Shown: positions 3,115-58,604 of the stretch, in pieces | How the letters are laid out: every line of letters begins with the position of its first letter | Numbering within the stretch: position 1 is the first letter of the stretch | Origin: an uncultured Parcubacteria group bacterium | GTDB lineage: Bacteria > Patescibacteriota > Patescibacteriia > UBA9934 > CAMTUG01 | DNA length: 64,000 bases | Assembly (NCBI GenBank): GCA_947084965.1 | Contig: CAMTUG010000001.1 | Span: forward strand, 276,206-340,205 | Direction: 5' to 3' | Translations under genes and position numbers: made by a program | Notes under the pieces: generated by a model | What the model saw: the letters and a program-made list of their open reading frames with translations, nothing else | Told to the model about the DNA's origin: nothing | The model's database searches: none

Positions 3115-3120
3115 GGGGAC

Positions 3121-3149
3121 TTGTCAGTGCCAGTTGCTTTTGATACGTT
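3121..3149 (+). promoter_or_regulatory. Sigma70-like promoter for the zinc-finger ORF
   Basis: TTGTCA (3121-3126), a 17-nt spacer, then TACGTT (3144-3149). AAAGGAG at 3161-3167 precedes ATG 3172. Confidence 0.45.
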
Positions 3150-3171
3150 CCTGCCGTCCCAAAGGAGTCCC

Positions 3172-3741
3172 ATGCCCCCTCGTTCTTCCGCCCCCGCCGG
3201 TCTCTCCTGCTCCTTCTGCACCAAGGCCGCCAACACCCCTGAGGTGAAGAAGGTCATCGCCGGCGTAAACGTCTACATCTGTGACGTCTGCGTCAAGGGG
3301 ATGGTCGCGCTCGTCGTTGTCCAACGTCCGGCTGACGCATCCTACCTCCTGCGTCGGCCCGAGCTCGATCTGCGCACCTTCACCATGACCGTCACGGGGT
3401 CGACGACGCTCGGTGACGTGCTCGGCTGGTACCTGCGTGTCTACCGTACGTTCCCTCACCTCCCCAAGGAGACCGGGACGGTCATCACGAGTGCTGCCTG
3501 CCGATTCTGCAGCCGGGTCGACCAGGTCGTGATCAGCCGCCTCGCGGCCAACATCTGCCTCGACTGCCTGCGGGACGTCGCCAAGATCCTGCTCAAGGAC
3601 GACCCTGCGCCGTCCTACCTGGTGCGTGATGCGGTGCTCGACTTGTGCCCGTTCGCCACCCTCCGCCTCGACGTGGATGAGCCGCACACCATCGGCGATG
3701 TTCTCAACGCCTACACGACCGCATCTCCGCCGCTGAACTGA
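3172..3741 (+). CDS. Two-module protein with tandem ClpX-type C4 zinc fingers (orphan, GC3-rich)
   Basis: The motifs 'CSFC...YICDVC' and 'CRFC...NICLDC' are each followed by a related module ('LDLRTFTMTV..TLGDVLGWY' and 'LDLCPFATLRL..TIGDVLNAY'). Hand counts give 42/60 G+C in the first 60 nt and 25/30 G/C at codon position 3. AAAGGAG lies upstream. The track start at 3121 falls inside the putative promoter, so ATG 3172 is preferred. Confidence 0.7.
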   Translation: MPPRSSAPAGLSCSFCTKAANTPEVKKVIAGVNVYICDVCVKGMVALVVVQRPADASYLLRRPELDLRTFTMTVTGSTTLGDVLGWYLRVYRTFPHLPKETGTVITSAACRFCSRVDQVVISRLAANICLDCLRDVAKILLKDDPAPSYLVRDAVLDLCPFATLRLDVDEPHTIGDVLNAYTTASPPLN

Positions 3742-3778
3742 TCTTCGGCAGCTCACCTCGGCCGCCGATCTATACGGA

Positions 3779-3860
3779 ACGCCGCTCGGAATACTCCCGG
3801 GCGGCGTCTGAACTTAATTGAATTTCAAACCGCGCTCGTCCAGGACGGAGAGCGCGGATT
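3779..3860. terminator. Two GC-rich hairpins between convergent genes
   Basis: The first hairpin is 'acgccgctcgg-aatact-cccgggcggcgt'. The second is 'ccgcgctc-gtccaggacgg-gagcgcgg', which is followed by TTT on the minus strand. Confidence 0.55.
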
Positions 3861-3863
3861 TGA

Positions 3864-5048
3864 TTACGGTCGTTCCTTGGGGCGGAGGAAGTAGAGGACG
3901 ATCGCGAGAATGACGAGCAGTCCGCCGGAAGCGAGCCAGACGTCAGCGATGTTCGCCGGCGTGTCCTCGCGGCCGGACATGTAGAAGGCGAGTGAGAAGA
4001 GGACGATCGCGGCGCCGATCTCTTCCATCAGCGACTGCAACGATCCGAACGTCGAGCGGTATTCGCTCGTAACGTGGTGGTTGGTGTAGCTGTCGAGGAG
4101 CGGTCGGAACGCCCCGCGGCCGACTTCGTGCACCACGCCCATCACGAGGACCAGTCCAAGCCCAGGAACTTGCCCGATGAGCGCCAGGCCAACCCCAGCG
4201 ACGACGAGGGCGATCATCACGGCTTTGGCTTCGGCCCCTGAAGCGATCTTCGCTTTGCGAATGATCATCCCGGCGATGAAGAGCGCCAGATAGAGCGGGC
4301 TCCAGATCAGTCCGAGCTGGCTGGTGGCCACAAACTGCTCGAAGTACTTCGGCCAGTAGTGGTTGAACGCCACGACCAGACCGCTCACCATCCCTACCGC
4401 CACGGCCCAGCGCAGCGCCGAGCTGTTGCGCAGGGCATTGACGCTCCGCTTGAGCGCCTCTTTCTCGCTGACCTTTTCGTGGGCCAGTACTTCGCCGTCG
4501 CCGTTCATGTAGCGGGTGACGACAAAGAGTCCGACGAGAGCAAAGAACGCACTAGCGATCCACGGCCACCGAAGGCCGAAGGTCGATCCGATCCACGAGC
4601 CAAAGATCGCCGCCGGTGCGGCCAGCAATCCTTTGACGATCGCGGCGTTGGCGAACGTCTGCCCCTTTTCGTTTTCGCGATTGTGCAACTTCAAGGCGTC
4701 GACGATCCAGGCCTGCTGAATCCCCGAGAGGAAGGTGAAGGCCAAACCGTTGACCACTTCGGCCGCCAGCGCCCACCAGACGTTCTCTGCCAGGAAGTAG
4801 ATCGCGTTGCCCAGAGCGAAGATCAGGAAGCCGATGCGCAAGGACCAGGCGCGGGAGCGGGCGTCGGCCCACATCCCGGTCGGGACTTCGAAGAGGATGA
4901 TCGCCACCCAGAACCAACCGTTGACCATCGAAACCTGGCTCAAGGTGAGCCCGATCGAGGTGAGGAACGGAACGTAGGTCGCCGTGGTGACCATGAACAT
5001 CAGGCCCAGGGCGGCGGAGAAGAGGATGTAGGCGCGGGAAGGGGACAT
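3864..5048 (-). CDS. MFS-type transporter (GC3-rich)
   Basis: 394 aa, hydrophobic, with roughly 12 TM segments of MFS type. 28/30 G/C at codon position 3 in the first 30 codons. GGAGG lies just upstream of the ATG. Confidence 0.8.
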   Translation of the reverse strand: MSPSRAYILFSAALGLMFMVTTATYVPFLTSIGLTLSQVSMVNGWFWVAIILFEVPTGMWADARSRAWSLRIGFLIFALGNAIYFLAENVWWALAAEVVNGLAFTFLSGIQQAWIVDALKLHNRENEKGQTFANAAIVKGLLAAPAAIFGSWIGSTFGLRWPWIASAFFALVGLFVVTRYMNGDGEVLAHEKVSEKEALKRSVNALRNSSALRWAVAVGMVSGLVVAFNHYWPKYFEQFVATSQLGLIWSPLYLALFIAGMIIRKAKIASGAEAKAVMIALVVAGVGLALIGQVPGLGLVLVMGVVHEVGRGAFRPLLDSYTNHHVTSEYRSTFGSLQSLMEEIGAAIVLFSLAFYMSGREDTPANIADVWLASGGLLVILAIVLYFLRPKERP

Positions 5049-5065
5049 AGAGCCTCCGGAGAGTC

Positions 5066-5103
5066 AAAAAAAGAACACGACCCGGGATGATTCCCAGGTC
5101 GTG
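5066..5103 (-). promoter_or_regulatory. Intrinsic-terminator-like hairpin inside the 5' leader of the MFS gene (candidate attenuator or riboswitch expression platform)
   Basis: The minus strand reads 'cacgacctggg-aatcat-cccgggtcgtg' followed by 'ttcttttttt'. GGAGG and the ATG follow about 10 nt later. Confidence 0.4.
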
Positions 5104-5311
5104 CGAGGACTCATTATGCAAAAAATCATGCAATCAGTGCTCGACCACCTGAGAAATACAACGCTTTCGGCATATCGCAGCCGACGAACGCGCGTCCGGT
5201 AATGTGGAGAGACTGATAATTCATACTGTTTTTAGTAGACAGGACTTTGTGAGTGATGTCAAGTGACGGAGTCTATATAAAAGCCAGCGGTTACGGTAAA
5301 CTGTCCCCAGT

Positions 5312-6424
5312 ATGAAAATCGCCTTTATTGGGCAGAAAGCAATGGGAGTTGGAGGGCGAGGGGGTGGCATTGAACGGCATGTGACCGAAATTGCTACGCG
5401 GTTGGTTCGGCGCGGGCACGAAGTAACGGTCTATGCACGCAAGCTGTACATGCCAGACAAGGTGCGTGAATTTCGTGGGGTGAGGATTGTGTATGTGCCG
5501 ACGATCTACACCAAAAATTTTGAAGCGATCATTCACACATTTTTTTCAACGCTCCACGCCCTGTTTAAAAATTTTGATGTCTATCACTATCACGGCGTCG
5601 GTCCGGCAACGCTTGCTTGGATGCCGCGGCTTTTTCGTCCTCACGCTCGGGTGGTCGTCACCTTTCATTCGCAAGATCGTTTTCACAAAAAGTGGGGATG
5701 GTTCGCACGGAACTATCTGCACTTCGGCGAATGGGCCAGTGTCTGGTTTCCGCACGCTTGCATCGCGGTGTCTCATGTGATTCAGGTTTATGCGCGTAAT
5801 GTGTATAAACGCCAGGTGATTTACATTCCAAACGGTGCAGATGTGCAGAGCGTTTCGTCTGATCGTGAACTGGAAACGTTCGGCCTGACCAAAGGCGAAT
5901 ACATCGTCAACGTTGGGCGCATCGTGCCGCAGAAAGGACTGCAGTATCTCCTTGCGGCGTATCAAAAACTCGAGACGCAGAAAAAGCTTGTGATTGTCGG
6001 GACTCCAAGTTTTTCTGAACGCTACGCCGATGAATTAAAACGGATGGCGGCAGGAAATCCGAACATCCTTTTTGTTGGACATCAAGTTGGGGAAGCATTG
6101 CGACAGCTTTACGGCCATGCGTATCTTTTCGTGCAGCCGTCTGAATCAGAAGGCCTTTCGATCGTCGTGTTAGAAGCGATGAGCTACGGCCTTGCTCCTT
6201 TGGTTAGCGACATCCCGGAAAATCTTGAAGCGATTAAGAATACGGGATTCACCTTTAGTAATCGTGACGCGGATGATTTAGCGATGCGGTTGCGACAGCT
6301 CCTGCAGCATCCTGAATTGGTTGTTGAGATGGGCGTCAAGGCGCGCGAGCTGGTGCGCACCGATTTTAATTGGGATGTTATTGCGGATCGCACGGAAGGG
6401 ATTTATGTTTCGATTCGGCATTAG
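5312..6424 (+). CDS. GT-B glycosyltransferase (family 4-like)
   Basis: 370 aa. N-terminal 'KIAFIGQKAMGVGGRGGGIERHV' and the C-terminal 'PSESEGLSIVVLEAMSYGLAPLVSD' EX7E-type motif. Confidence 0.8.
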   Translation: MKIAFIGQKAMGVGGRGGGIERHVTEIATRLVRRGHEVTVYARKLYMPDKVREFRGVRIVYVPTIYTKNFEAIIHTFFSTLHALFKNFDVYHYHGVGPATLAWMPRLFRPHARVVVTFHSQDRFHKKWGWFARNYLHFGEWASVWFPHACIAVSHVIQVYARNVYKRQVIYIPNGADVQSVSSDRELETFGLTKGEYIVNVGRIVPQKGLQYLLAAYQKLETQKKLVIVGTPSFSERYADELKRMAAGNPNILFVGHQVGEALRQLYGHAYLFVQPSESEGLSIVVLEAMSYGLAPLVSDIPENLEAIKNTGFTFSNRDADDLAMRLRQLLQHPELVVEMGVKARELVRTDFNWDVIADRTEGIYVSIRH

Positions 6425-6550
6425 TATGAAAATACGAAATCCGGAAATCGAAATTCGAAACAAATCAGAATCGGAAAGGGAAAATTTCAAACCTTTCACT
6501 TTTTTCTCTTTTCCGATCGTTTCGAATTTCGATATTTGAATTTCGAATAT
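6425..6550. repeat. AT-rich hairpin (family A/B) filling the GT4-ATPase junction
   Basis: 'atcgaaattcgaaac' (6447-6461) pairs perfectly with 'gtttcgaatttcgat' (6519-6533). 'atcggaaag' pairs with 'ttttccgat'. It shares 'aaatacgaaa' and 'aatcggaaag' with the element at 906-1018 and ends at the ATG of the next gene. Confidence 0.7.
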
Positions 6551-8998
6551 ATGAACAAGGAAGTCCTGTTAAAAAATGAGCTCCCCTCAACGCCTCCTCC
6601 GGGGTACGGCGTGTTAGTGCTGAATCAACTGAAGTCGCCCCTGGTTTATATTTTGCTCGTCGCGGCTGGGTTGTCGGTTGCCGTTCATGAATATTTTGAT
6701 GCCGGCGTTATCTTATTCGCGGTTTTATTGAATACATCGTTAGGGTTTTTACAAGAGTTTAAGGCTTCGCGAGCGCTCGATGCCTTAAAAGCACTGGTGC
6801 AACCGGAAGCTCGGGTCAAGCGAGATGGTAAGATCGTCACGATCGCGGCGCGTGATGTGGTTGTGGGCGACACGCTCGTGCTTGAGACGGGGGATCGTGT
6901 CGCTGCAGATGCAAGAGTTTCCGTCGCGGTTGAATTACAGGTCAACGAATCAACGCTGACCGGAGAATCGATGCCGGTCACCAAAGTTTTTGATGGAAAG
7001 GAACAGGTCTTCATGGGCACAACGATTGTGGCCGGGCGCGGAGAAGCCGTGGTGACAGAGATCGGGATCAATACGCGCCTTGGACAGACGGCGGAGCTGG
7101 TTGCATCGATGGAAGAAGAAGATACACCGCTGCAAACGGAACTTGGGCGACTGTCACAGACGTTGTCGATCGCGGTTTTGGTGATCGGGCTCGTAGTGAT
7201 CGTGATCGGGGTGTCCAAAGGGGGCGAGGTGATCGAGATGGTTACGCTCGCCGCCGCCCTCGCCGTGGCTGCGATTCCCGAAGGACTGCTCGTCGGGCTG
7301 ACCGTTATTTTAGCGATCGGCATGCAGCGGATGCTCAAAGCCAAGGCATTGACGCGGCGTCTCGTCGCGGCTGAAACGCTGGGGAGCGTCTCTGTTATTT
7401 GTACAGATAAAACAGGAACGATCACTAAAGGCGAAATGGAAGTGACCGTAATCGAATCCGAGGATCGAAAAAAAGCGCTCAGGGTTGCCGCGCTCTGCAA
7501 CAACGCCGAACTTGAAGGGATGCAGGTGCGTGGAACGATGACGGAAATGGCCTTACTTACCGCAGCCATGCATGAAGGGTTGGTCAAGGAAGCGCTCGAG
7601 GCAGATTATCCGCGTCTGGATGAACGACCGTTTTCTTCGTCCGCTAAGTTTATGGCGACGCTGCATCGTCACGGGAGTCATAACATGATTCTGTTAAAAG
7701 GGGCTCCAGAGGTCGTTGCCAGTTTTTGTTCGAAGGGAGGAGAGATTGTGTCGCATCATGCCCCGAAGATGACAGAAAAAGGATTGCGGGTGATCGCTTT
7801 GGCGATGAAAGAGGTAGGACAGACAACAACCACGCTGCGGGATGAAGATCTGCACGGGTTGACCTGCGTAGGATTGATCGGGCTCAGCGACCCGATTCGT
7901 CCTGAAGCAGCGCAAACGATCAAAGAAGCCAAGGTCGCCGGGGTGCGCACGATTATCATTACCGGAGATCATCCAAGGACGGCCCAAACGATCGCTGAAC
8001 AGGCGGGGTTTGGTCCAGAGAATAAGCGCGTGATCACAGGTGAGGAACTGGACGCCCTTTCTGAATCTGATTTTGCGCGGCGTCTTTCTTCGATCGATAT
8101 TTATGCCCGTGTGTTGCCGGCGCACAAAGTTCGTATCGTTCAGGCATGGCGTCACGCCGGGGCGTCTGTGGCCATGATCGGAGATGGGGTCAACGATGCG
8201 CCTGCCCTCAAAGCCGCCGACATCGGTGTCGCTTTGGGCAGTGGGACAGAGGTGGCCAAGCAGACAGGGGATATGGTTTTGCTCGATAATAATCTGTCGA
8301 CGTTGGTTCATGCGATCGCTCAGGGCCGAGTCATTTTTGACAACATCCGTAAGGTCGTTGCGTATCTGCTGACAGATAGCTTTACGGAACTGCTCCTGAT
8401 CATCGCCACGTTTCTCATCGGATTGCCGATCCCGATCTTTCCGGCGCAGATTTTGTGGATCAACTTGGTGACCGATGGATTTCCACACATGGCCCTGACG
8501 ATTGAAAAACCTGAACGCGGAATCATGAACGAACCGCCGCGGCCACGCACCGAGCGCGTCATAAACAAAGAGATGCGGGTCATTATTTCGCTCGTCGGTC
8601 TCACCACGGTCGTTCTGCTTCTCGGTCTGTATATCTACCTTCTTTCCACAGAGATGCCGATCGAAAAGATCCGCACGGTCATCTTCACGGCCCTCGGATT
8701 AAACTCGCTTCTGTACGTTCTTTCGATCCGGACCTTCCGTTCATCGATGTTCACCTCAAATCCGTTACAAAATCCTTGGCTCGTCGCATCGATGTTCGTT
8801 GGATTCCTCTTTTTGCTCGCCCCACTCGTGATCCCATCGTTCCGTACTCTGTTCGGTTTTGTGCCGCTGACCTTCCTAGAATTCGGGGCATTAGTTATGC
8901 TAGCCTTAGGACGCCAGCTCTTAACAGAAGCGATCAAGTTTTACTACCATTATGGAAAACGAAAAGAATCCCGAACCGGCATGGCTCTTTCAGCGTAA
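6551..8998 (+). CDS. P-type cation-transporting ATPase (type II, Ca2+/cation-like)
   Basis: 'CTDKTGTIT' phosphorylation site, 'TGDHPRTA' and 'GDGVNDAPALK'. Multiple TM helices. ATG 6551 is preferred over the track start at 6536. Confidence 0.9.
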   Translation: MNKEVLLKNELPSTPPPGYGVLVLNQLKSPLVYILLVAAGLSVAVHEYFDAGVILFAVLLNTSLGFLQEFKASRALDALKALVQPEARVKRDGKIVTIAARDVVVGDTLVLETGDRVAADARVSVAVELQVNESTLTGESMPVTKVFDGKEQVFMGTTIVAGRGEAVVTEIGINTRLGQTAELVASMEEEDTPLQTELGRLSQTLSIAVLVIGLVVIVIGVSKGGEVIEMVTLAAALAVAAIPEGLLVGLTVILAIGMQRMLKAKALTRRLVAAETLGSVSVICTDKTGTITKGEMEVTVIESEDRKKALRVAALCNNAELEGMQVRGTMTEMALLTAAMHEGLVKEALEADYPRLDERPFSSSAKFMATLHRHGSHNMILLKGAPEVVASFCSKGGEIVSHHAPKMTEKGLRVIALAMKEVGQTTTTLRDEDLHGLTCVGLIGLSDPIRPEAAQTIKEAKVAGVRTIIITGDHPRTAQTIAEQAGFGPENKRVITGEELDALSESDFARRLSSIDIYARVLPAHKVRIVQAWRHAGASVAMIGDGVNDAPALKAADIGVALGSGTEVAKQTGDMVLLDNNLSTLVHAIAQGRVIFDNIRKVVAYLLTDSFTELLLIIATFLIGLPIPIFPAQILWINLVTDGFPHMALTIEKPERGIMNEPPRPRTERVINKEMRVIISLVGLTTVVLLLGLYIYLLSTEMPIEKIRTVIFTALGLNSLLYVLSIRTFRSSMFTSNPLQNPWLVASMFVGFLFLLAPLVIPSFRTLFGFVPLTFLEFGALVMLALGRQLLTEAIKFYYHYGKRKESRTGMALSA

Positions 8999-9638: not shown

Positions 9639-10297
9639 CCAGTATTGCGGCGATCGTGCCGGCCTACAATGAAGCACAGACGATTGCGGACGTCGTAGCG
9701 ACGCTCCGTCAGAGTGTATTGGTGCAGGAGGTGATCGTCGTTTCTGACGGTTCAACCGATGATACGGAAGCGTTGGCGGCCTCTGCGGGGGCGCGGGTCA
9801 TTCGTCTGTCAAAAAAAGGAGGGAAGGGAGCGGCGATGCTCCATGGACTCACACAGACCGATGCCCAGATTATTCTGTTTACTGACGCGGATTTGATTGG
9901 ATTTACCACTGAGCATGTTGAACGCCTCTTACTTCCGATCCTAAACGGAGCGCGGGTTATGAACGTCGGTTTGCGTGACCGAGGGCGCTTGATTACGGCT
10001 CTGGGAAGGTTCTTGCCTCTCATTGGCGGCGAGCGGGCGATTCGGCGATCGGTCATTGAACAGATTCCTCCTCACTTTTTGCAAGGATTTATGATAGAAT
10101 CTGCTTTGAACTACTTCTGTCGATCGCGGCGCTTGGCGTACGGTTCCGTAGCCCTGCCTGGGCTTACCATTCGACGCAAGTATCAAAAAGTGGGTTGGAA
10201 GGAAGGATTTAAACAATATGCTCGGATGTCGGGCCAGATCGTGACCGCTATGGTTCGTGTCCGTATCGCCCATTTGACTGGAACATTTCACGTATGA
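9635..10297 (+). CDS. Family 2 glycosyltransferase
   Basis: 'AAIVPAYNEAQTI', 'VVSDGSTDDT' and 'TDADL' are GT-A/GT2 signatures. ATG 9635 is in frame with the longer track ORF. Confidence 0.8.
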   Translation: MTSIAAIVPAYNEAQTIADVVATLRQSVLVQEVIVVSDGSTDDTEALAASAGARVIRLSKKGGKGAAMLHGLTQTDAQIILFTDADLIGFTTEHVERLLLPILNGARVMNVGLRDRGRLITALGRFLPLIGGERAIRRSVIEQIPPHFLQGFMIESALNYFCRSRRLAYGSVALPGLTIRRKYQKVGWKEGFKQYARMSGQIVTAMVRVRIAHLTGTFHV

Positions 10298-14935: not shown

Positions 14936-14955
14936 TTGGAGGTGCTTCAAAATAC

Positions 14956-15006
14956 TGTTTTACAGTTCGTTTGAGCACATAATGTCGTCAAACGAACTGT
15001 AAAAGT
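14956..15006. repeat. Conserved-loop hairpin, family C, copy 1
   Basis: Stem 'tacagttcgtttga'/'tcaaacgaactgta' (14 bp perfect, extendable by tttt/aaaa). The 13-nt loop is 'gcacataatgtcg'. I aligned about 64 nt by eye with the copy at 59881-59940, and most positions match. Confidence 0.75.
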
Positions 15007-15034
15007 ACTTTTTAAGACACCCAACCTCGCGCGT

Positions 15035-17593: not shown

Positions 17594-19048
17594 ATGACAG
17601 AGAACACGTTTTTCGGGTTAGGGATTGCGCCAAAGCTGCTCGACGTTTTGCAAGCCAATAAATACGTCACGCCAACGCCGATTCAGCAAAAGGCGATCCC
17701 GATCGCCATTGAAGGGAAGGATATCGTTGGAATCGCACAGACCGGAACGGGAAAGACGCTCGCTTTTTCCATCCCGATGCTTCAGCGACTGGCCGCCACC
17801 GGGGGAAAAGGGTTGGTGATTTTGCCAACCCGCGAATTAGCGTTGCAGGTCGAAGAAACGGTCATGAAGATCGGCCGCACGGCTGGGATTCGCACCGCTG
17901 TTTTAATTGGTGGTGCGTCGATGGGGTTACAGAAGAAGATGATCGAACGCAAGCCGCACGTGATCGTGGCCACCCCAGGTCGCTTGAATGATCATTTGCA
18001 GCAGGGGACGGTCAAGCTCGATGACGTCCGAGTTTTGGTGCTCGATGAAGCGGATCGCATGCTCGATATGGGCTTTGCTCCGCAGATCAACAAGATCATG
18101 GTCAAGTTGCCAAAGGATCGCCAGACGATGTTGTTTTCGGCAACGATGCCGCAGGAGATCGCCAAGATGGCCGCGGAATTTATGAAGCTCCCGTTGCGCG
18201 TCGAGATCGCCCGTCAAGGGACGACGGCTGAGCGGGTGGTGCAAGAAATGTTTGTGGTCAACAAAGAAGACAAGCAGCGTCTGCTCGAAAAATTACTCAC
18301 GGAATATAAAGGTACGGTTCTTGTCTTTTCACGCACCAAGCACGGGGCAAAAAAGATTTGCAAAGCGATCCAGACGATGGGGCACACCTCGGCCGAAATC
18401 CATTCCAATCGCTCACTTGCCCAGCGTAAAGAGGCGTTGAATGGATTTAAGAGCGGGAAGTATCGCGTCCTTGTAGCCACCGACATCGCTGCTCGCGGGA
18501 TCGACGTTACGGGGATTGAACTGGTCATCAACTTTGATCTTCCGGATGCTTCCGAAGACTACGTCCATCGCATCGGCCGCACCGGCCGCGCCGGCATGGC
18601 TGGTCGCGCTATTTCCTTTGCTACACCAGATCAACGCGGAGACATTCGCCAGATCGAGCGCTTAGTGCGTACCCAATTCAACTTGTTGAAACCAGAAGGG
18701 TTGCCAGAGCGCCGTGCTGCGCCGCCTGCTGATCCTAAGGATCAACGCACCCATGGCGGTCCTGCGCGTCATGGTGGAGGCCCATCACGCCACGGCCGTT
18801 CGCCACAAGGCGGCCGCCCGAATCGTGATGCTTCCCGTTTTGAACAAAAATCTCATCCAGCCCCACAGCATCACGCTTCGACCGGCGGATCGTCCGCTCC
18901 TCGTCGTGACGACGCTCGTCCACCGCGCCGAGACGATTCGCGTCCACCCCGCCGCGAAGGCGGTCACGGCCGCTCATCCGGCGCCGGCAATCCAAACCGC
19001 CCACCCAAGCGCGGCCCCAAGAAGTATTTTTACGGTTCAGCCTGGTAA
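17594..19048 (+). CDS. DEAD-box ATP-dependent RNA helicase with an Arg/Gly/Pro-rich C-terminal tail
   Basis: Q motif, 'AQTGTGKT', 'PTRELA', 'VLDEADRMLDMGF', 'SAT' and 'HRIGRTGRAG'. Confidence 0.9.
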   Translation: MTENTFFGLGIAPKLLDVLQANKYVTPTPIQQKAIPIAIEGKDIVGIAQTGTGKTLAFSIPMLQRLAATGGKGLVILPTRELALQVEETVMKIGRTAGIRTAVLIGGASMGLQKKMIERKPHVIVATPGRLNDHLQQGTVKLDDVRVLVLDEADRMLDMGFAPQINKIMVKLPKDRQTMLFSATMPQEIAKMAAEFMKLPLRVEIARQGTTAERVVQEMFVVNKEDKQRLLEKLLTEYKGTVLVFSRTKHGAKKICKAIQTMGHTSAEIHSNRSLAQRKEALNGFKSGKYRVLVATDIAARGIDVTGIELVINFDLPDASEDYVHRIGRTGRAGMAGRAISFATPDQRGDIRQIERLVRTQFNLLKPEGLPERRAAPPADPKDQRTHGGPARHGGGPSRHGRSPQGGRPNRDASRFEQKSHPAPQHHASTGGSSAPRRDDARPPRRDDSRPPRREGGHGRSSGAGNPNRPPKRGPKKYFYGSAW

Positions 19049-25894: not shown

Positions 25895-25968
25895 TTCGGC
25901 TGGTTATAGCCCCCCCGTGAACACCCTAAACCTTTCAGAGAATAACAGAATTCGAGCATTTTGACCAC

Positions 25969-26025
25969 AAAAATCAGAAGCCGCCCTCGGGAGAGTGTGT
26001 CGCGAAGGCGACTTCCGAGAGCGGC
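25969..26025 (-). terminator. GC-rich terminator of the zinc-ribbon cassette
   Basis: The minus strand reads 'gccgctctcgga..gtcgc-cttc-gcgac..cccgagggcggc' followed by 'ttctgattttt'. Confidence 0.6.
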
Positions 26026-26329: not shown

Positions 26330-26349
26330 GAGGTCTCCTGGTTGAACTA

Positions 26350-30290: not shown

Positions 30291-30305
30291 GATTTTGAAA
30301 TGCCG

Positions 30306-30332
30306 AACCCCACCTGCGTTCCAGGTGGGGTT
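30306..30332. terminator. Hairpin between convergent genes
   Basis: 'aaccccacctg-cgttc-caggtggggtt' (11 bp perfect). Confidence 0.6.
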
Positions 30333-30348
30333 TCGTGCGTCAGGTCGG

Positions 30349-30726
30349 CTAGCGTGCGACGACCACGTAGATGCCGTCGCGGTACTGACCGAGGAGGTAG
30401 AAGATCAGACCCTCGACCGTGATCCGCAGCGGGCGCAAGTGCGGCTCGAGCGGGACCGTGCCAAGGAGCATCCTTTCGACCGTGGCGGTGGTGCCGCCCA
30501 GCCGCAGGATGTGCACGGCGCTGATGGCGGGGTGGACCTGGGCCTGCAGCGTCCGGATGATCGCTGTGATGATCGGGTTGGGCGTGCCAGGCTTCGTGCC
30601 GGCCAGCTCGCCAGACGCGAGCTCCTCGCGCCGGATCGCGAGGGTGACCATGATCGGTCGGATGCGCAGCTCGGCCTCGGGCCCGAGCGTGGTACGAAGG
30701 TGGTTGCGCAGTCGGGCGGTGTCCAT
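30349..30726 (-). CDS. Orphan soluble protein (GC3-rich)
   Basis: 125 aa starting 'MDTARLRNHL'. 42/60 G+C in the first 60 nt and 26/30 G/C at codon position 3. ACGGAG lies 7 nt before the ATG. The longer track ORF (to 30780) would run through its own promoter. Confidence 0.6.
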   Translation of the reverse strand: MDTARLRNHLRTTLGPEAELRIRPIMVTLAIRREELASGELAGTKPGTPNPIITAIIRTLQAQVHPAISAVHILRLGGTTATVERMLLGTVPLEPHLRPLRITVEGLIFYLLGQYRDGIYVVVAR

Positions 30727-30751
30727 GGCAGATCTCCGTTGGGGACCCTGG

Positions 30752-30793
30752 ATCATATGCGTTTTTGACGTTCGCGTCAAGGATTGCTAGGAT
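30752..30793. promoter_or_regulatory. Back-to-back divergent promoters sharing palindromic -35 boxes
   Basis: The minus strand reads TTGACG (30780-30775), 17 nt, TATGAT (30757-30752). The plus strand reads TTGACG (30765-30770), 17 nt, TAGGAT (30788-30793). Together they form 'ttgacg-ttcg-cgtcaa'. Confidence 0.45.
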
Positions 30794-34304: not shown

Positions 34305-34352
34305 TGTAGTGAGTCGATCTTGCACTCAGTCAGACGCCTTCGGGGCCTGGAG

Positions 34353-34517
34353 TCAGTTCCAGATGACGGGCGGTGCCGGGACCTTGCGGCCGCTGCTCTG
34401 CTCGTTCGGACGATTCTTCCTCTTCGGCCACCAGTCGGGAAATCCGCCTGGACACTTGATCGGCTCCGCCGGAAGGTGGGAACTTGCGCCCCCGCCGCCG
34501 ACGTGAACGCTGTTCAC
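34353..34517 (-). CDS. Candidate 54-aa Trp-rich basic peptide in a GC-rich insert (below the ORF-track cut-off)
   Basis: The GTG start is preceded by GAGGAGAG. The product reads 'MNSVHVGGGGASSHLPAEPIKCPGGFPDWWPKRKNRPNEQSSGRKVPAPPVIWN'. This frame has much higher G/C at codon position 3 than the two overlapping track ORFs. Confidence 0.3.
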   Translation of the reverse strand: MNSVHVGGGGASSHLPAEPIKCPGGFPDWWPKRKNRPNEQSSGRKVPAPPVIWN

Positions 34518-34605
34518 GGTACTCTCTCCTCACCCAACGGAAGGGTTGGGCTACACCTAATTACATCAAAAAAATTCATCTTCGAAAAATTGTTTGTGGA
34601 TAAGT

Positions 34606-39968: not shown

Positions 39969-41294
39969 ATGATTCCCAAATTCATCACCACCAAAAACGC
40001 TGAGCTTCCGGATAATCCGGGGGTGTATTTTTACTATGATACGAAAGGGAAGTTGCTGTACATCGGCAAGGCGACGAGTTTGAAAAAACGCGTGGGATCA
40101 TATTTCACCAAAGCGCATGATAATCGCATCGCCGATTTGGTAACGAAGATTGCGCGGATTGATTACATCGAAACACCGACCGTTATCGAAGCGCTAGTGC
40201 TTGAAGCGAATCAGATCAAAGCGCATACGCCGCCGTACAATGTTTTGCAGCGCGATGACAAAAGTTTTCTGTATGTGGCGATCACCAATGAAGACTTTCC
40301 CAAGCCGACGTTGCTTCGCGGGTTGGAGTTGCAGCGCATGGGAGTTGATCCGTTTGCGCCGACGCTCTCGCTCAAAGCCAAGCGCAAGTTCAAGGCGATT
40401 TATGGTCCGTACACCAGCGGGCATTCGTTGAAGATCGCTCTCGATCTGATTCGTAAGAGCATTCCTTGGACAACCTGTGAACCGCCAGAAGTGACGGGAG
40501 TAGCCAAAGCCTGTTTTTATCGCCACCTTGGCCAGTGTCCAGGAGTTTGTACAGGAGAGATCACCAAGCGTGATTATGCGAAGATTATTCGCAGTCTGAT
40601 GCTGTTTTTTGAGGGCAAAAAGGAACAGATCATACGCCAGATGCGTCGGGAGATGAAGTCTGCGGCGAATGATTTAGATTTTGAACGCGCCGCGGAATTG
40701 AAGCGTAAGACTTTCGCGTTAACGCATATTCAAGACGTGGCGTTGGTGAGTCACGAAGAGCCGTTGCCGTACAATCGCGAGTCGAAGCCGTACATTGATA
40801 TTCTCGGGCGCATCGAAGCGTACGACATCAGTAATATTTCTGGCACCTCCGCAGTTGGATCGATGGTTGTGTTTGATGACGGGAAGCCAGCCAAACAGCA
40901 CTATCGCAAGTTTAAAATCAAAACCGTGGTTGGCGCGAACGACGTGGCGTGTTTAGAGGAGGTGATGCGTCGTCGTTTGGCGCGTGCGGAGCTGCAGCCA
41001 AAAGCTTGGCCGTTGCCAGAGCTGATGGTGATTGATGGCGGCAAGCCGCAAGTCAATCGGGTGCAAGAAGTGCTCGATGAGTTGCAGGTTGCACTGCCGA
41101 TTGTTGGGCTGGCCAAAGGATTTGATCGCAAGCAGGACGTGTTGATTTTTGATCCTGCCAATCGCGAGTTAAAGCGTGTCGTCGAAACGAACAAAGAGAT
41201 CCTCCAGCGCGCCCGCGACGAAGCGCATCGCTTTGCTATCAGCTACCATCGTAAACTACGAGGAAAACGCTCATTATTGGGCCCTCATACTTGA
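39969..41294 (+). CDS. uvrC: Excinuclease ABC subunit C, short form ending where the (HhH)2 domain normally begins
   Basis: GIY-YIG 'GVYFYYDTKGKLLYIGKA', UVR 'DLDFERAAELKRK' and endonuclease region 'RDEAHRFAISYHRKLRGKR'. 441 aa. Confidence 0.9.
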   Translation: MIPKFITTKNAELPDNPGVYFYYDTKGKLLYIGKATSLKKRVGSYFTKAHDNRIADLVTKIARIDYIETPTVIEALVLEANQIKAHTPPYNVLQRDDKSFLYVAITNEDFPKPTLLRGLELQRMGVDPFAPTLSLKAKRKFKAIYGPYTSGHSLKIALDLIRKSIPWTTCEPPEVTGVAKACFYRHLGQCPGVCTGEITKRDYAKIIRSLMLFFEGKKEQIIRQMRREMKSAANDLDFERAAELKRKTFALTHIQDVALVSHEEPLPYNRESKPYIDILGRIEAYDISNISGTSAVGSMVVFDDGKPAKQHYRKFKIKTVVGANDVACLEEVMRRRLARAELQPKAWPLPELMVIDGGKPQVNRVQEVLDELQVALPIVGLAKGFDRKQDVLIFDPANRELKRVVETNKEILQRARDEAHRFAISYHRKLRGKRSLLGPHT

Positions 41295-41319
41295 CAGGGA
41301 TCGATTTTTGCTTTATCTT
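41291..41319 (+). promoter_or_regulatory. Promoter of the orphan ORF; the -35 box overlaps the uvrC stop codon
   Basis: TTGACA (41291-41296), a 17-nt spacer, then TATCTT (41314-41319). AAGGAG at 41333-41338. Confidence 0.45.
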
Positions 41320-41343
41320 TACCCTCCACCCCAAGGAGTCTCA

Positions 41344-41688: not shown

Positions 41689-41743
41689 ACGTCCGGGCCT
41701 CGCCCTGCACGTCCGACCGGCTGCGATTCTCGCACCCGCCCCG

Positions 41744-41790
41744 GCATGAGCCCCTCGCTCACACTGCCGCGGTGGGTGCTCATGCTTTTA
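41744..41790 (+). terminator. Terminator of the orphan cassette
   Basis: 'gcatgagc...gctcatgc' followed by 'ttttatcgtcttttttt'. Confidence 0.65.
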
Positions 41791-41828
41791 TCGTCTTTTT
41801 TTGAATGCCGTGTTACATTGTCCCTACT

Positions 41829-51559: not shown

Positions 51560-51609
51560 AAAAACAGAAGCGCGCACCCGGAGAGAGCGGCTAGCCGGGT
51601 GGGCTTCTG
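51560..51609 (-). terminator. Terminator of the membrane-anchored orphan
   Basis: The minus strand reads 'cagaagcccacccgg...ccgggtgcgcgcttctg' followed by 'ttttt'. Confidence 0.65.
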
Positions 51610-51632
51610 CCGCGCTTCAGGTGCGCGTGACC

Positions 51633-52100: not shown

Positions 52101-52145
52101 CGGAACCTTCCTGTAAGCCGCGGCGGGGATGCCATGCGGGGGATG

Positions 52146-52174
52146 AATATAGCATATTTTGGGCAAAAAGTCAA
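52146..52174 (-). promoter_or_regulatory. Promoter of the membrane-anchored orphan
   Basis: The minus strand reads TTGACT (52174-52169), a 17-nt spacer, then TATATT (52151-52146). Confidence 0.5.
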
Positions 52175-53170: not shown

Positions 53171-53179
53171 AGGTAGTGA

Positions 53180-54643
53180 TTAGAATGGGTGAGCTGGCGG
53201 GGCCGGTGGCGGTGGGGGCGGCGGTGGCAATGCACGTCCGCCGTTCGGCCCGATCCCCGCAGGGATCGCGGCACCTGGTGGCGGAGGGGTATTGCTTCGG
53301 CGTTCGAGATTTTTAAAGCTGGCGCGGGTAGAGTCAAAAAAGACGTTGACCACCCCGGTCGGGCCGTTACGATGTTTGCTGATATGGATTTCAGCCAAAT
53401 TTTTCTCTTCTGGGGCCAAATCTTCGAGCCGGAAGTTCTTATCCGCCGCTTTGCGGTAGATAAATAATACCACATCGGCGTCCTGTTCAATGGAACCGGA
53501 TTCACGCAAGTGAGCGAGTTTTGGAATGGCCGGTTTTACCAGTTCCACGGCACGGTTCAGCTGGGAGAGGCAGAGCACAGGGATGTTCAACTCACGAGCA
53601 AGTTGTTTGAGCGAACGGCTGATTTCAGAAACTTCTTGCACGCGGTTGTCACCCCCGTTGTACTTATGCGATTCCATCAGCTGTAAGTAGTCGATGATGA
53701 TCAATCCCAAGCCGTGTTCTGCCTGCAAACGTCGGGCTTTGGTGCGAATTTCAAGCGCCGTACAGCCGGCGGAGTCGTCGATGAAGATCGGTGCTTCGGA
53801 CAAAACCCCGAGCGCCTGGCCGATCCGCGGAAAATCATCATCGCGTTCGGAAAGTTTACCGGTGCGCAATCGCCACAAGTCGATTCCGGCTTCGGCACAG
53901 ATCATACGATCCACCAGCTGTTCTTTGGACATTTCCAGTGAAAAGATCCCCACCGCCTTTTTTGTTTTAACCGCGGCGTTGCGGGCAATGTCCAAAGCCA
54001 GCGACGTCTTTCCAACCGAAGGACGGGCAGCGAGAATAATCAGGTCCGAGTTTTGCAGACCGGCCAAAATATTGTCGAGTTCGGTGAATCCCGTTGTCAG
54101 GCCACGTAACTTGCCGCGTTCTTTGTGCAGTTCGTCGATGCGTTCGAAAGCGTCAGAAAGGACAGAGCGAATGGGGGAGAAGGACTGCTTCAAAAAGTTA
54201 CTGGAGACGTTGAAAAGTTTTTGTTCCGCCCCGTCAAGCAGAACGTCAGTGTCTTTTTCTTCATCATAGCCCATTTCGGTGATCTCGCTTGCGGTACGAA
54301 TCAACCGCCGCAGTGTCGCCTTCTTCTGAATAATTTTGGCGTAGTGGGCGCAGTTGCCAGACGTAGCCACGGCGTTCGCGAGCTCAGCGAGAAAAGACCG
54401 TCCGCCAATCTGGGTTAGCATCCCGCGTTCGTCCAAGCGGTTTCCCACAGATAGCAGATCGATCGGCTCGTGCCGTTCGAACAATTCAATAATCGTCTCA
54501 AAAACCATCCGGTGGGCGTCTTTATAAAAATCGTCCGCCCGCACCAGGTCGGCCACTTTAATGATCGCATCCGGATCGATCAAAATCGACCCGATCAGTG
54601 AGATCTCAGCTTCCAGGTTTTGTGGGGGGATGCGGTCTGCCAT
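53180..54643 (-). CDS. dnaB: Replicative DNA helicase DnaB with a Pro-rich C-terminal extension
   Basis: 'PPQNLEAE', the 'AARPSVGKTS' P-loop and 'IIIDYLQLM'. The last roughly 45 aa read 'NTPPPPGAAIPAG...PPPPPPPPAPPAHPF'. Confidence 0.95.
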   Translation of the reverse strand: MADRIPPQNLEAEISLIGSILIDPDAIIKVADLVRADDFYKDAHRMVFETIIELFERHEPIDLLSVGNRLDERGMLTQIGGRSFLAELANAVATSGNCAHYAKIIQKKATLRRLIRTASEITEMGYDEEKDTDVLLDGAEQKLFNVSSNFLKQSFSPIRSVLSDAFERIDELHKERGKLRGLTTGFTELDNILAGLQNSDLIILAARPSVGKTSLALDIARNAAVKTKKAVGIFSLEMSKEQLVDRMICAEAGIDLWRLRTGKLSERDDDFPRIGQALGVLSEAPIFIDDSAGCTALEIRTKARRLQAEHGLGLIIIDYLQLMESHKYNGGDNRVQEVSEISRSLKQLARELNIPVLCLSQLNRAVELVKPAIPKLAHLRESGSIEQDADVVLFIYRKAADKNFRLEDLAPEEKNLAEIHISKHRNGPTGVVNVFFDSTRASFKNLERRSNTPPPPGAAIPAGIGPNGGRALPPPPPPPPAPPAHPF

Positions 54644-54717
54644 AAGCGACGGTATCTTACCACTGGCCCCTGCCGGGACAAGTGTAAAACGTGTGGGTAG
54701 TGTATACTGTGGTCATT

Positions 54718-55866: not shown

Positions 55867-55867
55867 T

Positions 55868-56290: not shown

Positions 56291-57029
56291 GGGCGCCAGC
56301 CACCGGTTCAACGGACTCAAATTCCACGTCCCCGAGCACTTGATCGCCCACTTTGGTGGTGCCAACGTCAATGACGATGGCCCCTTTTTTGATCATCGAC
56401 CCTTTGATCCGTTTCGGCTGACCAACAGCGACGATCAGCACATCTGCTTCGAGGCAGATGGCTGCGAGCTCCGCTGAGTCGGGGTGCACGATCTTGCTTT
56501 CGATTCCACCTTCCTTCAACAAAGCGACGAGAGGCCGAGCGAAGATTTCGGAGCAGACGAGTGTGGCTCGCTTCACGTGTGTTTGATGCGCTGTATCGAT
56601 CAGCTTCATCACCCCCATCGCTACAGGTGAAATCAATCCTGGAAGCCCATGCTCCAATCGGCGTAGGTTTTCTGGATGAAATCCGTCAATATCTTTGTTG
56701 GGATCGATCGCGCGAATGACGTCATCTGGGTTTTGATGGGGGAGGGGGAGCTGAACTAAGATGCCCTGGATATCTTCGCGAGCGTTCAAGGCATGGATCT
56801 TTGCGATTAAATCAGTTTGAGAAATCGTGGCGTCAAATACGTGCTTCTCAAAGCGAATCCCAACTTCATTACACGCCTTTTCTTTTAATGACACGTACAG
56901 ATGTGACGCCGGATCGTCGCCAACTAAAAGCGCGGCCATGCCCGGGGTGTCGGGAGAGCCTTTAATCATCTCTTTGACTTTGTCGCGGATGCGCGCGGCG
57001 ATCTCGCGGCCGTTCAATATCTGCGCCAT
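56193..57029 (-). CDS. folD: Methylenetetrahydrofolate dehydrogenase/methenyl-THF cyclohydrolase FolD
   Basis: 'ILNGREIA', 'LVGDDPASHLYV' and 'TPVPGGVGPVT'. Confidence 0.95.
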   Translation of the reverse strand: MAQILNGREIAARIRDKVKEMIKGSPDTPGMAALLVGDDPASHLYVSLKEKACNEVGIRFEKHVFDATISQTDLIAKIHALNAREDIQGILVQLPLPHQNPDDVIRAIDPNKDIDGFHPENLRRLEHGLPGLISPVAMGVMKLIDTAHQTHVKRATLVCSEIFARPLVALLKEGGIESKIVHPDSAELAAICLEADVLIVAVGQPKRIKGSMIKKGAIVIDVGTTKVGDQVLGDVEFESVEPVAGALTPVPGGVGPVTVAMLMLNVVKAYRLQRPQKT

Positions 57030-57030
57030 G

Positions 57031-58272
57031 TTAGTAGGAAAGCCCGGGATAGAGCGGGAATTTCGAAGTCATCTCTTTAACCTGATTTCTGATTTCCGTC
57101 AATGCGGTTTCGTCGTTCGTGTGCGTGATGGCGAGGTCGATCCAAGCAGCAATCAATTTCATCTCTTCTTCCTTCATCCCGCGGGTGGTGAGCGCCGGCG
57201 TGCCGAGGCGGATGCCGGAAGGATCCATCGGTCCGCGTGGGTCGTCTGGAATCGCGTTTTTATTGACCGTGATTCCGGCGGCGTCGAGGGCGATCTGGGC
57301 TTGCTTACCCGTGACGTTTTTGTTGGTGAGGTCGAGCAAGAGCAAATGATTTTCTGTGTGACCAAAACAAATGGAGTATCCGCGGGCGATGAATTCTGCT
57401 TCAAGCACTTTGGCGTTTGCCTTGATCTGCCTTGCATACGCCTTGAATTCCGGCAAAAGGGCTTCTTTGAACGCCACGGCTTTGGCGGCGATAACATTTT
57501 CGTGCGGTCCGCCTTGTAATCCCGGGAAGACTGCCTTGTCGATCGCTTTGGCATGGATTGCCTTGCACATGATCATCCCGCCGCGAGGGCCGCGGAGTGT
57601 TTTGTGTGTGGTTGTTGAAACAACGTCGAAGATCGGCACCGGGTTGTTCATCTCACCCGCGGCGATGAGTCCAGCGATGTGGGCGATGTCGGCCATCGTC
57701 AGCGCGCCCACTTCATCAGCAATCTCTTTGACCCGGGCGTAGTTAATCTCGCGCGAATAAGCGCTGTAGCCGACCAGGATCAACTTCGGCTTATGCTCGA
57801 GCGCCATCTGACGTAAGTTGTCGTAATCAATCGAACCATCGGCCACTGTTTTGTAGCGGATGAAGTTGTAGATGCCTGCGCTGAACGTCACCGGGTGCCC
57901 GTGCGTTAAGTGGCCGCCGTGAGACAAGTCCATCCCGAGGACGGTATCGCCTGGGGAGAGAAGAGCGGCATAGACGGCGATGTTGGCTGGTGCACCGGAA
58001 AGCGGCTGGACGTTGACGTGTTCCGCACCAAATAATTGCTTGGCACGTTCAATCGCCAGGCCCTCCATCACATCGATGAATTCGCAGCCGCCGTAGTAGC
58101 GTTTGCTGATATACCCTTCAGAATATTTGTTTGTGGCGACGCTACCGAGGGCTTCAAGGACTGCTCGTGAAACGAAGTTTTCACTTGGAATCATCTCTAA
58201 TCCTTCACGTTCACGATCGAGTTCATTTTGTAATGCTCCAGCGATATCAGGATCAAATTGTTTCAAAAACAT
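57031..58272 (-). CDS. glyA: Serine hydroxymethyltransferase
   Basis: 'IPSENF', '[15 protein letters not shown]' and more. The start is taken at 58272; the alternative is 58290. Confidence 0.95.
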
Positions 58273-58419
58273 ACAAGCGTTAAAGATCATGGATTATCCG
58301 TTACAGTTTGTACATTCTACAACATATTCCTGACTTGCACCTGCAAATTTTCTGGCCGGTGACGTACTTCGTTGGCTTATTTAGGCCTCGGTTGAATGAA
58401 AGAAAATGTAAAAAAGTTG

Positions 58420-58448
58420 AGGCGGCCGCGCACGTGGGGCGGCCGCCT
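58420..58448 (-). terminator. Minus-strand terminator at the left edge of the GC-rich element
   Basis: 'aggcggccgc-(9 nt)-gcggccgcct' (10 bp perfect), followed on the minus strand by 'caactttttt'. Confidence 0.7.
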
Positions 58449-58501
58449 GGGAGCTGGCTTGGTATCTGCAGACGTGGGGACCGTGAAGCGGTCCCCGGGA
58501 C

Positions 58502-58522
58502 TCAGGCGACGCAGGTCGTCAT
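58502..58522 (-). CDS. Six-codon sORF (MTTCVA) behind a perfect SD; coding status uncertain
   Basis: AAGGAGG (58534-58528), 5 nt, then ATG ACG ACC TGC GTC GCC TGA. The same frame is open upstream to a TTG (26 codons) but has no SD there. Confidence 0.25.
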   Translation of the reverse strand: MTTCVA

Positions 58523-58570
58523 GCGATCCTCCTTGCCGTTCGGCTCGGGGGTTGCTGGCTGCGGGTTGCA

Positions 58571-58604
58571 CGCACCGAACAAGCTGTATTCGGTGCGATT
58601 TTTA
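58571..58604 (+). terminator. Plus-strand terminator at the right edge of the GC-rich element
   Basis: 'cgcaccgaa-caagctgta-ttcggtgcg' followed by 'attttta'. Confidence 0.7.

Follow-up and report, generated by a model that had tools for sequence, protein, structure and literature searches.

Single-gene units with C/G-ending codons and strong Shine-Dalgarno sites between the housekeeping genes of a Parcubacteria genome, and the counterparts of some of them at the same junctions of related genomes

How do small genes that differ from their host in base composition, codon usage and initiation signal come to lie, each with its own promoter and terminator, between conserved housekeeping genes? This question is raised by a stretch of 64,000 nucleotides from an uncultured Parcubacteria group bacterium (assembly GCA_947084965.1, contig CAMTUG010000001.1, positions 276,206 to 340,205), which we call the window and number from its first letter. 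It contains seven open reading frames (ORFs) with an unusually high GC content at third codon positions (GC3) and strong Shine-Dalgarno (SD) sites, which we refer to as C1a, C1b (a major facilitator superfamily or MFS transporter gene), C2, C3, C6, C4 and C5 in their order along the window, and two GC-rich patches that look similar. Our comparisons show that at least three of these units (the MFS gene, C4 and C5) have long occupied their junctions, which are shared with other genomes of the Candidate Phyla Radiation (CPR). We tentatively regard the units as autonomous single-gene accessory units of a patescibacterial flexible gene pool, exchanged or diversified within conserved arms and coming from a GC-richer, SD-using source, a reading to which we give somewhat less than an even chance.

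That the units are distinct from their surroundings is not in doubt. All eight stretches have a GC content of 0.62-0.68, against a mean of 0.523 outside them (400-bp windows; standard deviation 0.030, 99th percentile 0.595), in a window of 53% GC. Hand counts of G or C at the third position of the first 30 codons, on which the original prediction was based, were exactly reproduced by computation (25, 28, 25, 26, 27 and 27 in the units; 16 in uvrB, 19 in murG and 20 in the rimK-like gene). Computed over whole ORFs, GC3 is well separable from the background: it is 0.84 for C1a (3172-3741, plus strand), 0.84 for the MFS gene (3864-5048, minus), 0.80 for C2 (26036-26329, minus), 0.90 for C3 (30349-30726, minus), 0.78 for C6 (34353-34517, minus), 0.89 for C4 (41344-41688, plus) and 0.93 for C5 (51633-52100, minus), which places the seven at z = 4.0-7.0 relative to 55 native ORFs (0.581 +/- 0.050, maximum 0.69). 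The excess consists of C-ending codons, since third-position C reaches 0.54 versus 0.28 in native genes while G is nearly the same (0.32 versus 0.30), and both T (0.08 versus 0.24) and A (0.06 versus 0.18) drop about three-fold. The codon preferences also differ in kind, with ACC preferred over ACG, GTC over GTG, and AAG at 0.88. Other GC peaks were considered as missed units and rejected: those at 18.7-19.1 kb (18700-19048) and 53.2 kb (53180-53300) are low-complexity tails of native genes, the Arg/Gly/Pro-rich C-terminus of a DEAD-box helicase and the poly-proline C-terminus of DnaB, respectively, and the ORFs of the 9.1-9.4 kb peak have GC3 in the native range (0.53-0.56).

The claim that the units differ in their initiation signal also holds. 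The duplex energy with the anti-SD sequence is -6.6 to -9.5 kcal/mol for all seven ORFs, compared with a median of -2.4 for native genes and -2.9 for random 18-mers, and values of -6 or lower occur in 7% of the native genes (Mann-Whitney p = 2e-4). In their binding to the anti-SD, native genes do not exceed random sequence, and those native genes that do possess an SD are not GC3-rich. Most units have a near-consensus sigma-70 promoter, the best matches (10/12) lying directly upstream of C3, C4 and C5 and making up three of the six best in the regions scanned; the unit promoters are of an AT-rich TTGACA-17-TGnTATAAT type. Strong hairpins, most of them with a U-run, follow all units except the one at 34.3 kb (3' fold z of -2.6 to -5.5). 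To judge from these signals, the units appear to be self-contained transcription units that are compositionally and translationally distinct. Each unit would have an AT-rich sigma-70 promoter of its own to drive transcription, a strong SD for translation and an intrinsic terminator at its end, and the strong SD may permit initiation on a GC-rich message in an otherwise SD-independent translation regime. The predicted products are small: C5 would be a beta-sandwich protein with a membrane anchor, C1a and C2 proteins of a zinc-finger or zinc-ribbon kind, and C1b an MFS pump; C3 has no homolog and C4 a single one.

The original prediction explained these features in the first place by repeated acquisition from a high-GC, Actinobacteria-like donor, and itself stated that this would be refuted if distant relatives carried identical genes at identical junctions. 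This outcome was obtained for the MFS gene, C4 and C5; the junction comparison covered these three units and the uvrB|uvrA gap. The promoter of C4 (TTGACA, 17 nt, TATCTT at 41291-41319, within a promoter and SD region at 41291-41338 on the plus strand) begins with a -35 box that overlaps the stop codon of uvrC, and an SD AAGGAG (41333-41338) precedes the 114-aa ORF, which is followed by a terminator hairpin and U-run (41728-41804, plus strand). When 1.84 billion representatives were searched exhaustively with phmmer, C4 had a single relative, P0114. In the locus L106 a C4 ortholog with 42% amino acid identity lies directly after uvrC and before mraZ. L106 comes from a close relative of the window genome (UvrC 76%, MraZ 85% and flanking proteins 64-85% identical), and its C4 ortholog has a GC3 of 0.72 against a background of 0.57 and an SD CCAAGGAGGG; two further SD-led, GC3-rich orphan ORFs lie near it. 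For the MFS gene, an ortholog with 54% identity occurs in L082 in the order GT4|MFS|uppS|tRNA-Lys|murG, and others adjoin GT4 in L084 and are flanked by GT4 and uppS in L110. In L092 the genes dnaB-ybaB-recR are followed by a C5 homolog (52% identity), just the arrangement seen in the window. The gene downstream of C5 had been labelled rplU, which our analysis does not bear out, as it is a 130-aa ORF without assignment. The presence of three units at the same junctions in relatives shows that a high-GC bacterium has not recently donated them.

C5 is the unit with the richest family. The ORF (155 aa) encodes an N-terminal transmembrane helix and a beta-sandwich domain without a Pfam match; upstream on the minus strand (52106-52174) are an SD AGGAAGG (52106-52112) and a promoter with an extended -10 TG (TTGACT, 17 nt, TATATT; 52146-52174), and downstream (51560-51620) is a terminator, GAAGCGCG...CGCGCUUC followed by UGUUUUUG. 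The same exhaustive search gave about 140 cluster representatives, proteins of about 155 aa with the motifs GMRNIVL, ALVGF, GFDYYG and YPPHWWQRLGFYG. Scanning with an alignment of an 8-sequence subset (a 40-sequence alignment was too divergent) recovered 21 C5 loci from metagenomes. ORF calls in these and the other related loci are heuristic, and family-wide correlations come from small samples (11-14 loci). The GC3 of C5 exceeds the median of the flanking ORFs in all 14 loci with a measurable background, by 0.05-0.53, the difference being 0.2 or more in 10 loci; for example, it is 0.76 against 0.23 in L087, 0.74 against 0.29 in L089, 0.76 against 0.28 in L091, 0.78 against 0.40 in L085, 0.84 against 0.57 in L092 and 0.87 against 0.65 in L100. 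Third positions favour C, as in the window units, and the homologs are GC3-rich even in genomes of 33-40% GC, the resident genomes ranging from 33 to 56% GC. The architecture is likewise shared: TTGACA, about 17 nt, an extended -10 TGnTATAAT, a leader of 30-45 nt, GGAGG, the ORF, and a hairpin with U-run. Among the 15 units whose flanks were read (the window included), a downstream terminator-like hairpin is present in 15, a GGAGG-type SD in 13 (two lack a strong SD) and a TTGACA/extended -10 promoter in 11-12 (three or four lack a clear one).

About half of the Parcubacteria have no detectable anti-SD motif (PMC9297842), and in almost all CPR loci compared here a strong SD precedes 0-10% of the native ORFs. 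In L099, a relative of L096, 36-50% of the native genes carry a strong SD and the GC3 of C5 is native-like there, and in L086 the sole C5 homolog without an SD has a near-native GC3 of 0.39-0.40 with a flank GC3 of 0.29; each of these is a single case. A link between high GC3 and SD was considered as a general rule and not accepted: across all CPR loci the odds ratio is 5.7 (p = 1e-4), and with the window and the C5 loci excluded the link is no longer significant (n = 13, p = 0.37).

What suggests turnover at these positions is the distribution of divergence within the units. The loci L089 and L091 have flanking proteins that are mostly 92-98% identical (73% in one neighbour), with a nonsynonymous divergence (dN) mostly of 0.015-0.05 and a synonymous divergence (dS) mostly of 0.56-0.84 (1.33 in one neighbour). 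Their C5 proteins are 57% identical, with dN 0.41 and dS 1.2, while the promoter and 5' untranslated region (UTR) of the unit are 87% identical and the 3' UTR with the terminator 91%. C4 behaves in the same way between the window and L106, where the coding region is 42% identical at the amino acid level versus 88% for the terminator (over the 60 nt that align). In both cases, the only two pairs in which this could be tested, the coding region diverges much faster than the unit's own UTRs and flanks. Such concentration of divergence in the coding region fits either diversifying selection or the exchange of old alleles within conserved arms, and the one hint of exchange within a population is the dS of C5 in L089/L091, which is above that of most flanking genes.

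This pattern resembles what is reportedly described by Rodriguez-Valera as replacement-type flexible genomic islands or hypervariable loci. The two have in common conserved flanks with highly divergent content at the same position (here, C5 in L089/L091 and C4 in the window and L106, both disproportionately divergent), an atypical composition, presence in some relatives only, and a predicted membrane-anchored or secreted nature of the product, in C5 and in several GC3-rich orphans of related loci. They differ in that the window units are single genes of 0.3-1.2 kb and not multi-gene clusters, that they are GC-richer than their genome although flexible or mobile DNA is usually AT-richer, and that the conserved arms are the units' own promoter, UTRs and terminator. 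If the likeness is real, the units may turn over as such loci do, by allelic exchange or diversifying selection within the arms, with occasional site-specific integration and decay as extras.

Different orphans at one junction were also observed. Between GT4 and uppS, next to the MFS gene, the window has C1a and L110 has a 223-aa ORF with a GC3 of 0.89 (249-920), and these two loci also show the highest GC3 of the MFS gene itself. More widely, GC3-rich (0.72-0.92) orphan ORFs were seen in related loci at L106 5059-6525 and 8532-9002, L082 16581-17255 (0.92), L093 2320-2940 (0.85) and L003 3591-4193 (0.82, in a genome of 37% GC). Most are SD-led and several have signal peptides, and they are unrelated in sequence to the window units. 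The ORF in L003, with a GC content of 0.64/0.47/0.82 at the three codon positions, has the amino-acid composition of a high-GC gene and looks imported.

If the units are old residents, why has their composition not decayed? We consider that C-rich third positions and SD sites would most likely come from continuing exchange with a GC-richer, SD-using pool, which is probably itself patescibacterial; detected horizontal gene transfer (HGT) in Patescibacteria is mostly within the phylum (PMC12455944). Several observations weigh against this. Native orthologs of the window and L106 are saturated at synonymous sites (dS of 3-5), so that amelioration should have erased the trace of a one-off import, yet C4 retains its high GC3 in both. 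We found no GC-rich donor pool and no phage, plasmid or viral relatives: the small ORFs gave no tblastn match in phage and plasmid collections, and scans of viral contigs gave no relatives of C5, C4 or C3. The recovered C5 relatives all lie among CPR-like genes, with a flank GC of 31-56%, and none in a high-GC context. First and second codon positions (GC1/GC2) of the C5 homologs are native-like, such as 0.50/0.31 in L087 despite a GC3 of 0.76. Finally, the GC excess of the MFS gene is confined to its coding sequence, the leader (GC 0.48) and 3' UTR (0.52) of the window being like those of relatives, which fits a force acting at the codon level better than import of a whole segment.

The last points would be explained if these are vertically inherited CPR genes whose C/G-ending codons are held in place either by selection at synonymous positions, acting through mRNA stability or through the translation of SD-dependent messages, or, at hot spots of recombination, by GC-biased gene conversion, a process documented in bacteria (PMC4450053). 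The units would then form a second, SD-dependent gene tier of SD-poor Parcubacteria, with strong promoters and SD sites, and their third positions would be actively maintained in genomes of 33-56% GC instead of passively recording an import. The MFS orthologs support such a view in more than one respect. Their GC3 forms a continuum (0.56 in L084, 0.60 in L083, 0.68 in L082 and L109, 0.72 in L110 and 0.84 in the window), their first 50 codons are the highest-GC3 part in every ortholog, and the GC of the leader (0.43-0.53) and of the 3' UTR does not track GC3. The same direction is indicated by the persistence of high GC3 in C4 and C5 despite saturated flanks, by the GC2 of C5, which weakly tracks the GC of its flanks (rho 0.65, p = 0.03, slope 0.24; 11 loci once near-duplicates are removed), by the near-native GC3 of the C5 homolog in L086, which has no SD, and by the native-like GC3 of C5 in the SD-using L096/L099. 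On the other hand, the effect is very large (+0.3 to +0.5 GC3), and the effects of GC-biased conversion in bacteria are said to amount to a few percent of GC3. Ribosomal-protein genes of the same genomes have no codon bias (in L089, rplK 0.27 and rplA 0.29 versus a background of 0.29), which makes it unlikely that ordinary translational selection acts this strongly on a small accessory gene, and we have set that explanation aside. Native SD-bearing genes are not GC3-rich, and orphans such as that of L003 are high in GC at all three positions. We see maintenance in situ as the main rival, though less likely than not, and continue to prefer a flexible patescibacterial pool.

An import from outside the CPR should be considered separately for the units without relatives. 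By unit, the closest relatives of the MFS protein and C5 are in CPR contexts wherever they can be placed, the one relative of C4 is in a CPR genome, C1a and C2 match only themselves and C3 matches nothing. C1a is a 189-aa ORF built as a tandem duplication of a ClpX-type C4 zinc finger together with some 45 further residues; residues 12-42 match the domain (PF06689, 36.6 bits against a cut-off of 27), and a degenerate second copy lies at about 108-140. It was considered as ClpX itself and rejected because it has no AAA+ ATPase module (NCBIfam ClpX score 35.6 against a cut-off of 359), so that the likeness to ClpX is limited to the N-terminal finger. A promoter candidate (TTGTCA, 17 nt, TACGTT), which scores under the threshold of our promoter scan, and an SD AAAGGAG (3161-3167, -6.6) precede it within 3121-3167 on the plus strand, and a word-indexed search of 5.8 billion sequences found only C1a itself. 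C1a and the MFS gene converge on a region (3742-3863) with strong hairpins on both strands (z = -5.5 and -4.6). C2 (97 aa, minus strand) carries CxxC...CxxC zinc-ribbon-like motifs and has an SD CAGGAG (26335-26340) and a terminator hairpin (25968-26018) followed by UUCUGAUUUUUG, and its candidate promoter, with a TTGACG box, falls within the 3' end of the rimK-like gene; the exhaustive search of the 1.84 billion representatives returned only C2. C3 (30349-30756, minus strand) is either a 125-aa ORF starting at 30726, with an SD ACGGAG at 30734-30739, or a 135-aa ORF starting at 30756. Its GC by codon position is 0.65/0.49/0.86-0.90, its promoter (TTGACG, 17 nt, TATGAT, 10/12) is at 30752-30780, and its terminator hairpin (30304-30335, AACCCCACCUG...CAGGUGGGGUU, z = -5.4) has a weak U-tract. 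No family match was found for C3, and the exhaustive search gave nothing.

For these units, recent and repeated acquisition from a high-GC, SD-using donor, such as an actinobacterium that may be the host of the episymbiont, deserves consideration. Actinobacterial genes prefer C over G and both far over T and A at third positions, with AAG, GAG and CAG favoured, and the units appear to resemble them in this. The units have SD sites; C1a, C2 and C3 are without CPR relatives; and GC1 and GC2 are somewhat elevated in C1a, C2, C3 and C4. Against such a donor stand the shared junctions of the MFS gene, C4 and C5, the CPR-like surroundings of all C5 homologs with flanking DNA, promoters of the AT-rich CPR type also seen in the C5-family loci, and an MFS leader common to CPR relatives. 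Nor did any other lineage yield a match, either for C2, C3 and C4 in the exhaustive search or for C1a in the word-indexed one. We consider this origin improbable, and what probability we leave to it concerns C1a, C2 and C3 only. The view of the units as foreign survives in part: they are distinct and one junction is empty in relatives, but three of them share their junctions with relatives and no Actinobacterial homologs were found.

The empty junction is that between uvrB and uvrA. The gap measures 30-37 bp in L001 and L002 versus 290 bp in the window, and the insert (34305-34593) is wholly missing from both relatives, so that it is lineage-specific. It contains C6, a doubtful 54-aa ORF on the minus strand (34353-34517) with a GTG start, an SD GAGGAGAG at 34524-34531 and no clear terminator. 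No direct repeats were seen at this junction, the only one aligned against relatives.

Could a dedicated insertion system, integron-like, related to IS110 or bridge recombinases, or a tRNA-targeting integrase acting in trans, have placed the units? One observation in favour of this lies at the tRNA-Lys(UUU) gene (2308-2382, minus strand). Two perfectly identical 64-bp direct repeats (2091-2154 and 2265-2328), spanning from the T-loop of the tRNA through its 3' end into a downstream hairpin, enclose a 110-bp non-coding patch (2155-2264, GC 0.66, minus-strand RNA fold z = -3.9). The second copy overlaps the 3' end of the tRNA gene at 2308-2328, and the first duplicates the last 21 nt of the tRNA together with 43 nt of the downstream hairpin. 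L106 has a single copy and no patch, and the patch is also absent from L082 and matches nothing else among the window units and related loci compared. As in tRNA-targeting integrative elements, a direct repeat with a tRNA 3' end surrounds foreign-looking DNA; unlike them, the enclosed 110 bp contain neither an ORF nor an integrase, and the repeat is long, extending 43 nt past the tRNA. It is possible that the patch is the remnant of an element integrated at tRNA-Lys, and the duplication looks like the sole scar in the window that resembles an integration site. A second observation comes from L083, where the surroundings of the MFS ortholog differ from the usual GT4|MFS|uppS order and include, right beside it, a GC3-rich (0.78) 529-aa ORF (587-2176) with a faint Transposase_20 (IS110-type) match.

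An unrecognised cassette-insertion process, which the original prediction offered as its second explanation, is nevertheless not borne out. The UTRs, the patch and the repeat have no sequence in common, which argues against a common recombination site. Integron cassettes are promoterless and differ further from the units, which have their own promoters and no shared attC-like sequence. The window showed no sign of an integrase or transposase, a statement that covers the selected ORFs scanned and otherwise rests largely on the earlier note. With no direct repeats at uvrB|uvrA either, we regard a dedicated system as very improbable.

A decayed unit may be represented by the second patch, C7 (58419-58534, minus strand, upstream of glyA). 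After an SD AAGGAGG (58528-58534), its coding content is a single 6-codon ORF, MTTCVA (58502-58522); it also contains an internal hairpin and, at 58419-58451, a terminator with a U-run behind it, and the fold z of the patch is -3.1. It may instead be a leader or small RNA. Rfam at gathering thresholds gave four tRNAs in the window and no other match, so the non-coding patches are not known RNAs. Decay of units, if it occurs, would be seen in this patch and in that at tRNA-Lys.

Because the source is a metagenome-assembled genome, GC-rich reads of another organism might have been spliced in by assembly. The inserts are, however, only 0.2-2 kb long with native sequence on both sides, and other assemblies have orthologous units at matching junctions. 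For one locus, an independent Logan contig (ERR3478686) is 100% identical over 2353-8123 (5771 bp), spanning uppS, C1a, the MFS gene and GT4. C1a is called as a gene in that contig, the identical MFS protein is on record from NCBI and Logan, and so are C1a, C2 and C4. An assembly artefact is unlikely, and we attach almost no probability to contamination or chimerism as the source of the units.

Compared with other known systems, the units are like phage morons, which are autonomous promoter-ORF-terminator units inserted between unrelated genes and unlike their surroundings in composition. They share this autonomous organization, but there is no prophage context, the neighbours being uvrABC, mur genes, recR and glyA, and no phage or viral match. 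With classical acquired islets they share GC3 values 4-7 standard deviations from the background, a distinct codon usage and the lack of homologs in several cases. They differ in that orthologs keep the anomaly across genomes saturated at synonymous sites, and in that one family is anomalous in recipients of 33% to 56% GC with no donor identified.

The MFS unit has a feature of its own. The transporter (394 aa) matches PF07690 (MFS_1) over its full length (88.7 bits, residues 10-348 of 394), and its 5' leader (5049-5190, minus strand) contains an SD GGAGG (5053-5057) and a terminator-like hairpin with U-run (5075-5104). About 110 nt of this leader are conserved in L082 (about 9860-10000), L083 (about 2340-2483) and L110 (about 1100-1222), where the proteins are 54-63% identical. 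The hairpin, CGACCUGGGAAU...CCCGGGUCG, lies just before the SD and shows possible compensatory changes, and in the window the U-run follows it. Rfam covariance models gave nothing above chance at E up to 10. The leader is a candidate riboswitch or attenuator.

As for the genome that carries the units, window UvrB is 74% identical to that of L001 and 72% to that of L002, which is labelled Candidatus Uhrbacteria, and the next best UvrB matches are to Magasanikbacteria and other Patescibacteria. Judged from these matches and a CPR-typical housekeeping set (murG, uppS, Mur ligases, uvrABC, mraZ/rsmH, recR, dnaB, glyA and folD), it is a Parcubacteria/Uhrbacteria-like CPR organism. Exact-protein look-ups gave no record for C3, C4 and UvrB, probably owing to start-codon choice or index coverage. 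Several side observations were made on the native sequence. When the window is aligned with L001 and L002, the likely start of uvrA is the ATG at 34606 and not the TTG upstream at 34594, and the C-terminus of window UvrB is longer than and different from those of relatives. A palindromic element of about 64-80 nt, TTTACAGTTCGTTTGAGCAC...GTCAAACGAACTGTAAAA, occurs in intergenic positions at 14941-15021 and 59877-59940 with 81% identity, and may be a repeated hairpin, a terminator or a small mobile element. AT-rich inverted and tandem repeats (CGAAAT/ATTTCG-like) lie directly upstream of murG (893-1010) and of an 820-aa gene (6432-6548), with a similar motif ahead of murG in L106 (about 3035-3064), and may be a shared regulatory or promoter-region element.

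In bacteria, accessory and mobile DNA usually has a higher AT content than the host genome, and genes of outlying composition are routinely taken for recent imports. The units described here reverse this pattern, being GC-richer than their host and carrying an initiation signal that is absent from the host's own genes, and at least two families, C4 and C5, keep their high GC3 and SD in orthologs across deeply diverged CPR genomes. Why GC3 persists could be explained by continuing exchange with a GC-richer, SD-using pool or by maintenance in situ. If this picture is true, composition-based HGT calls in Patescibacteria need care, and either a GC-rich gene pool would circulate hidden among these episymbionts or synonymous sites would be subject to a gene-specific force. 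The C5 family, with its membrane anchor, beta-sandwich domain and hypervariable middle region, is an undescribed candidate surface factor. The units may also offer a concrete way to study the coexistence of SD-dependent and SD-independent translation in organisms in which the anti-SD is often reported missing.

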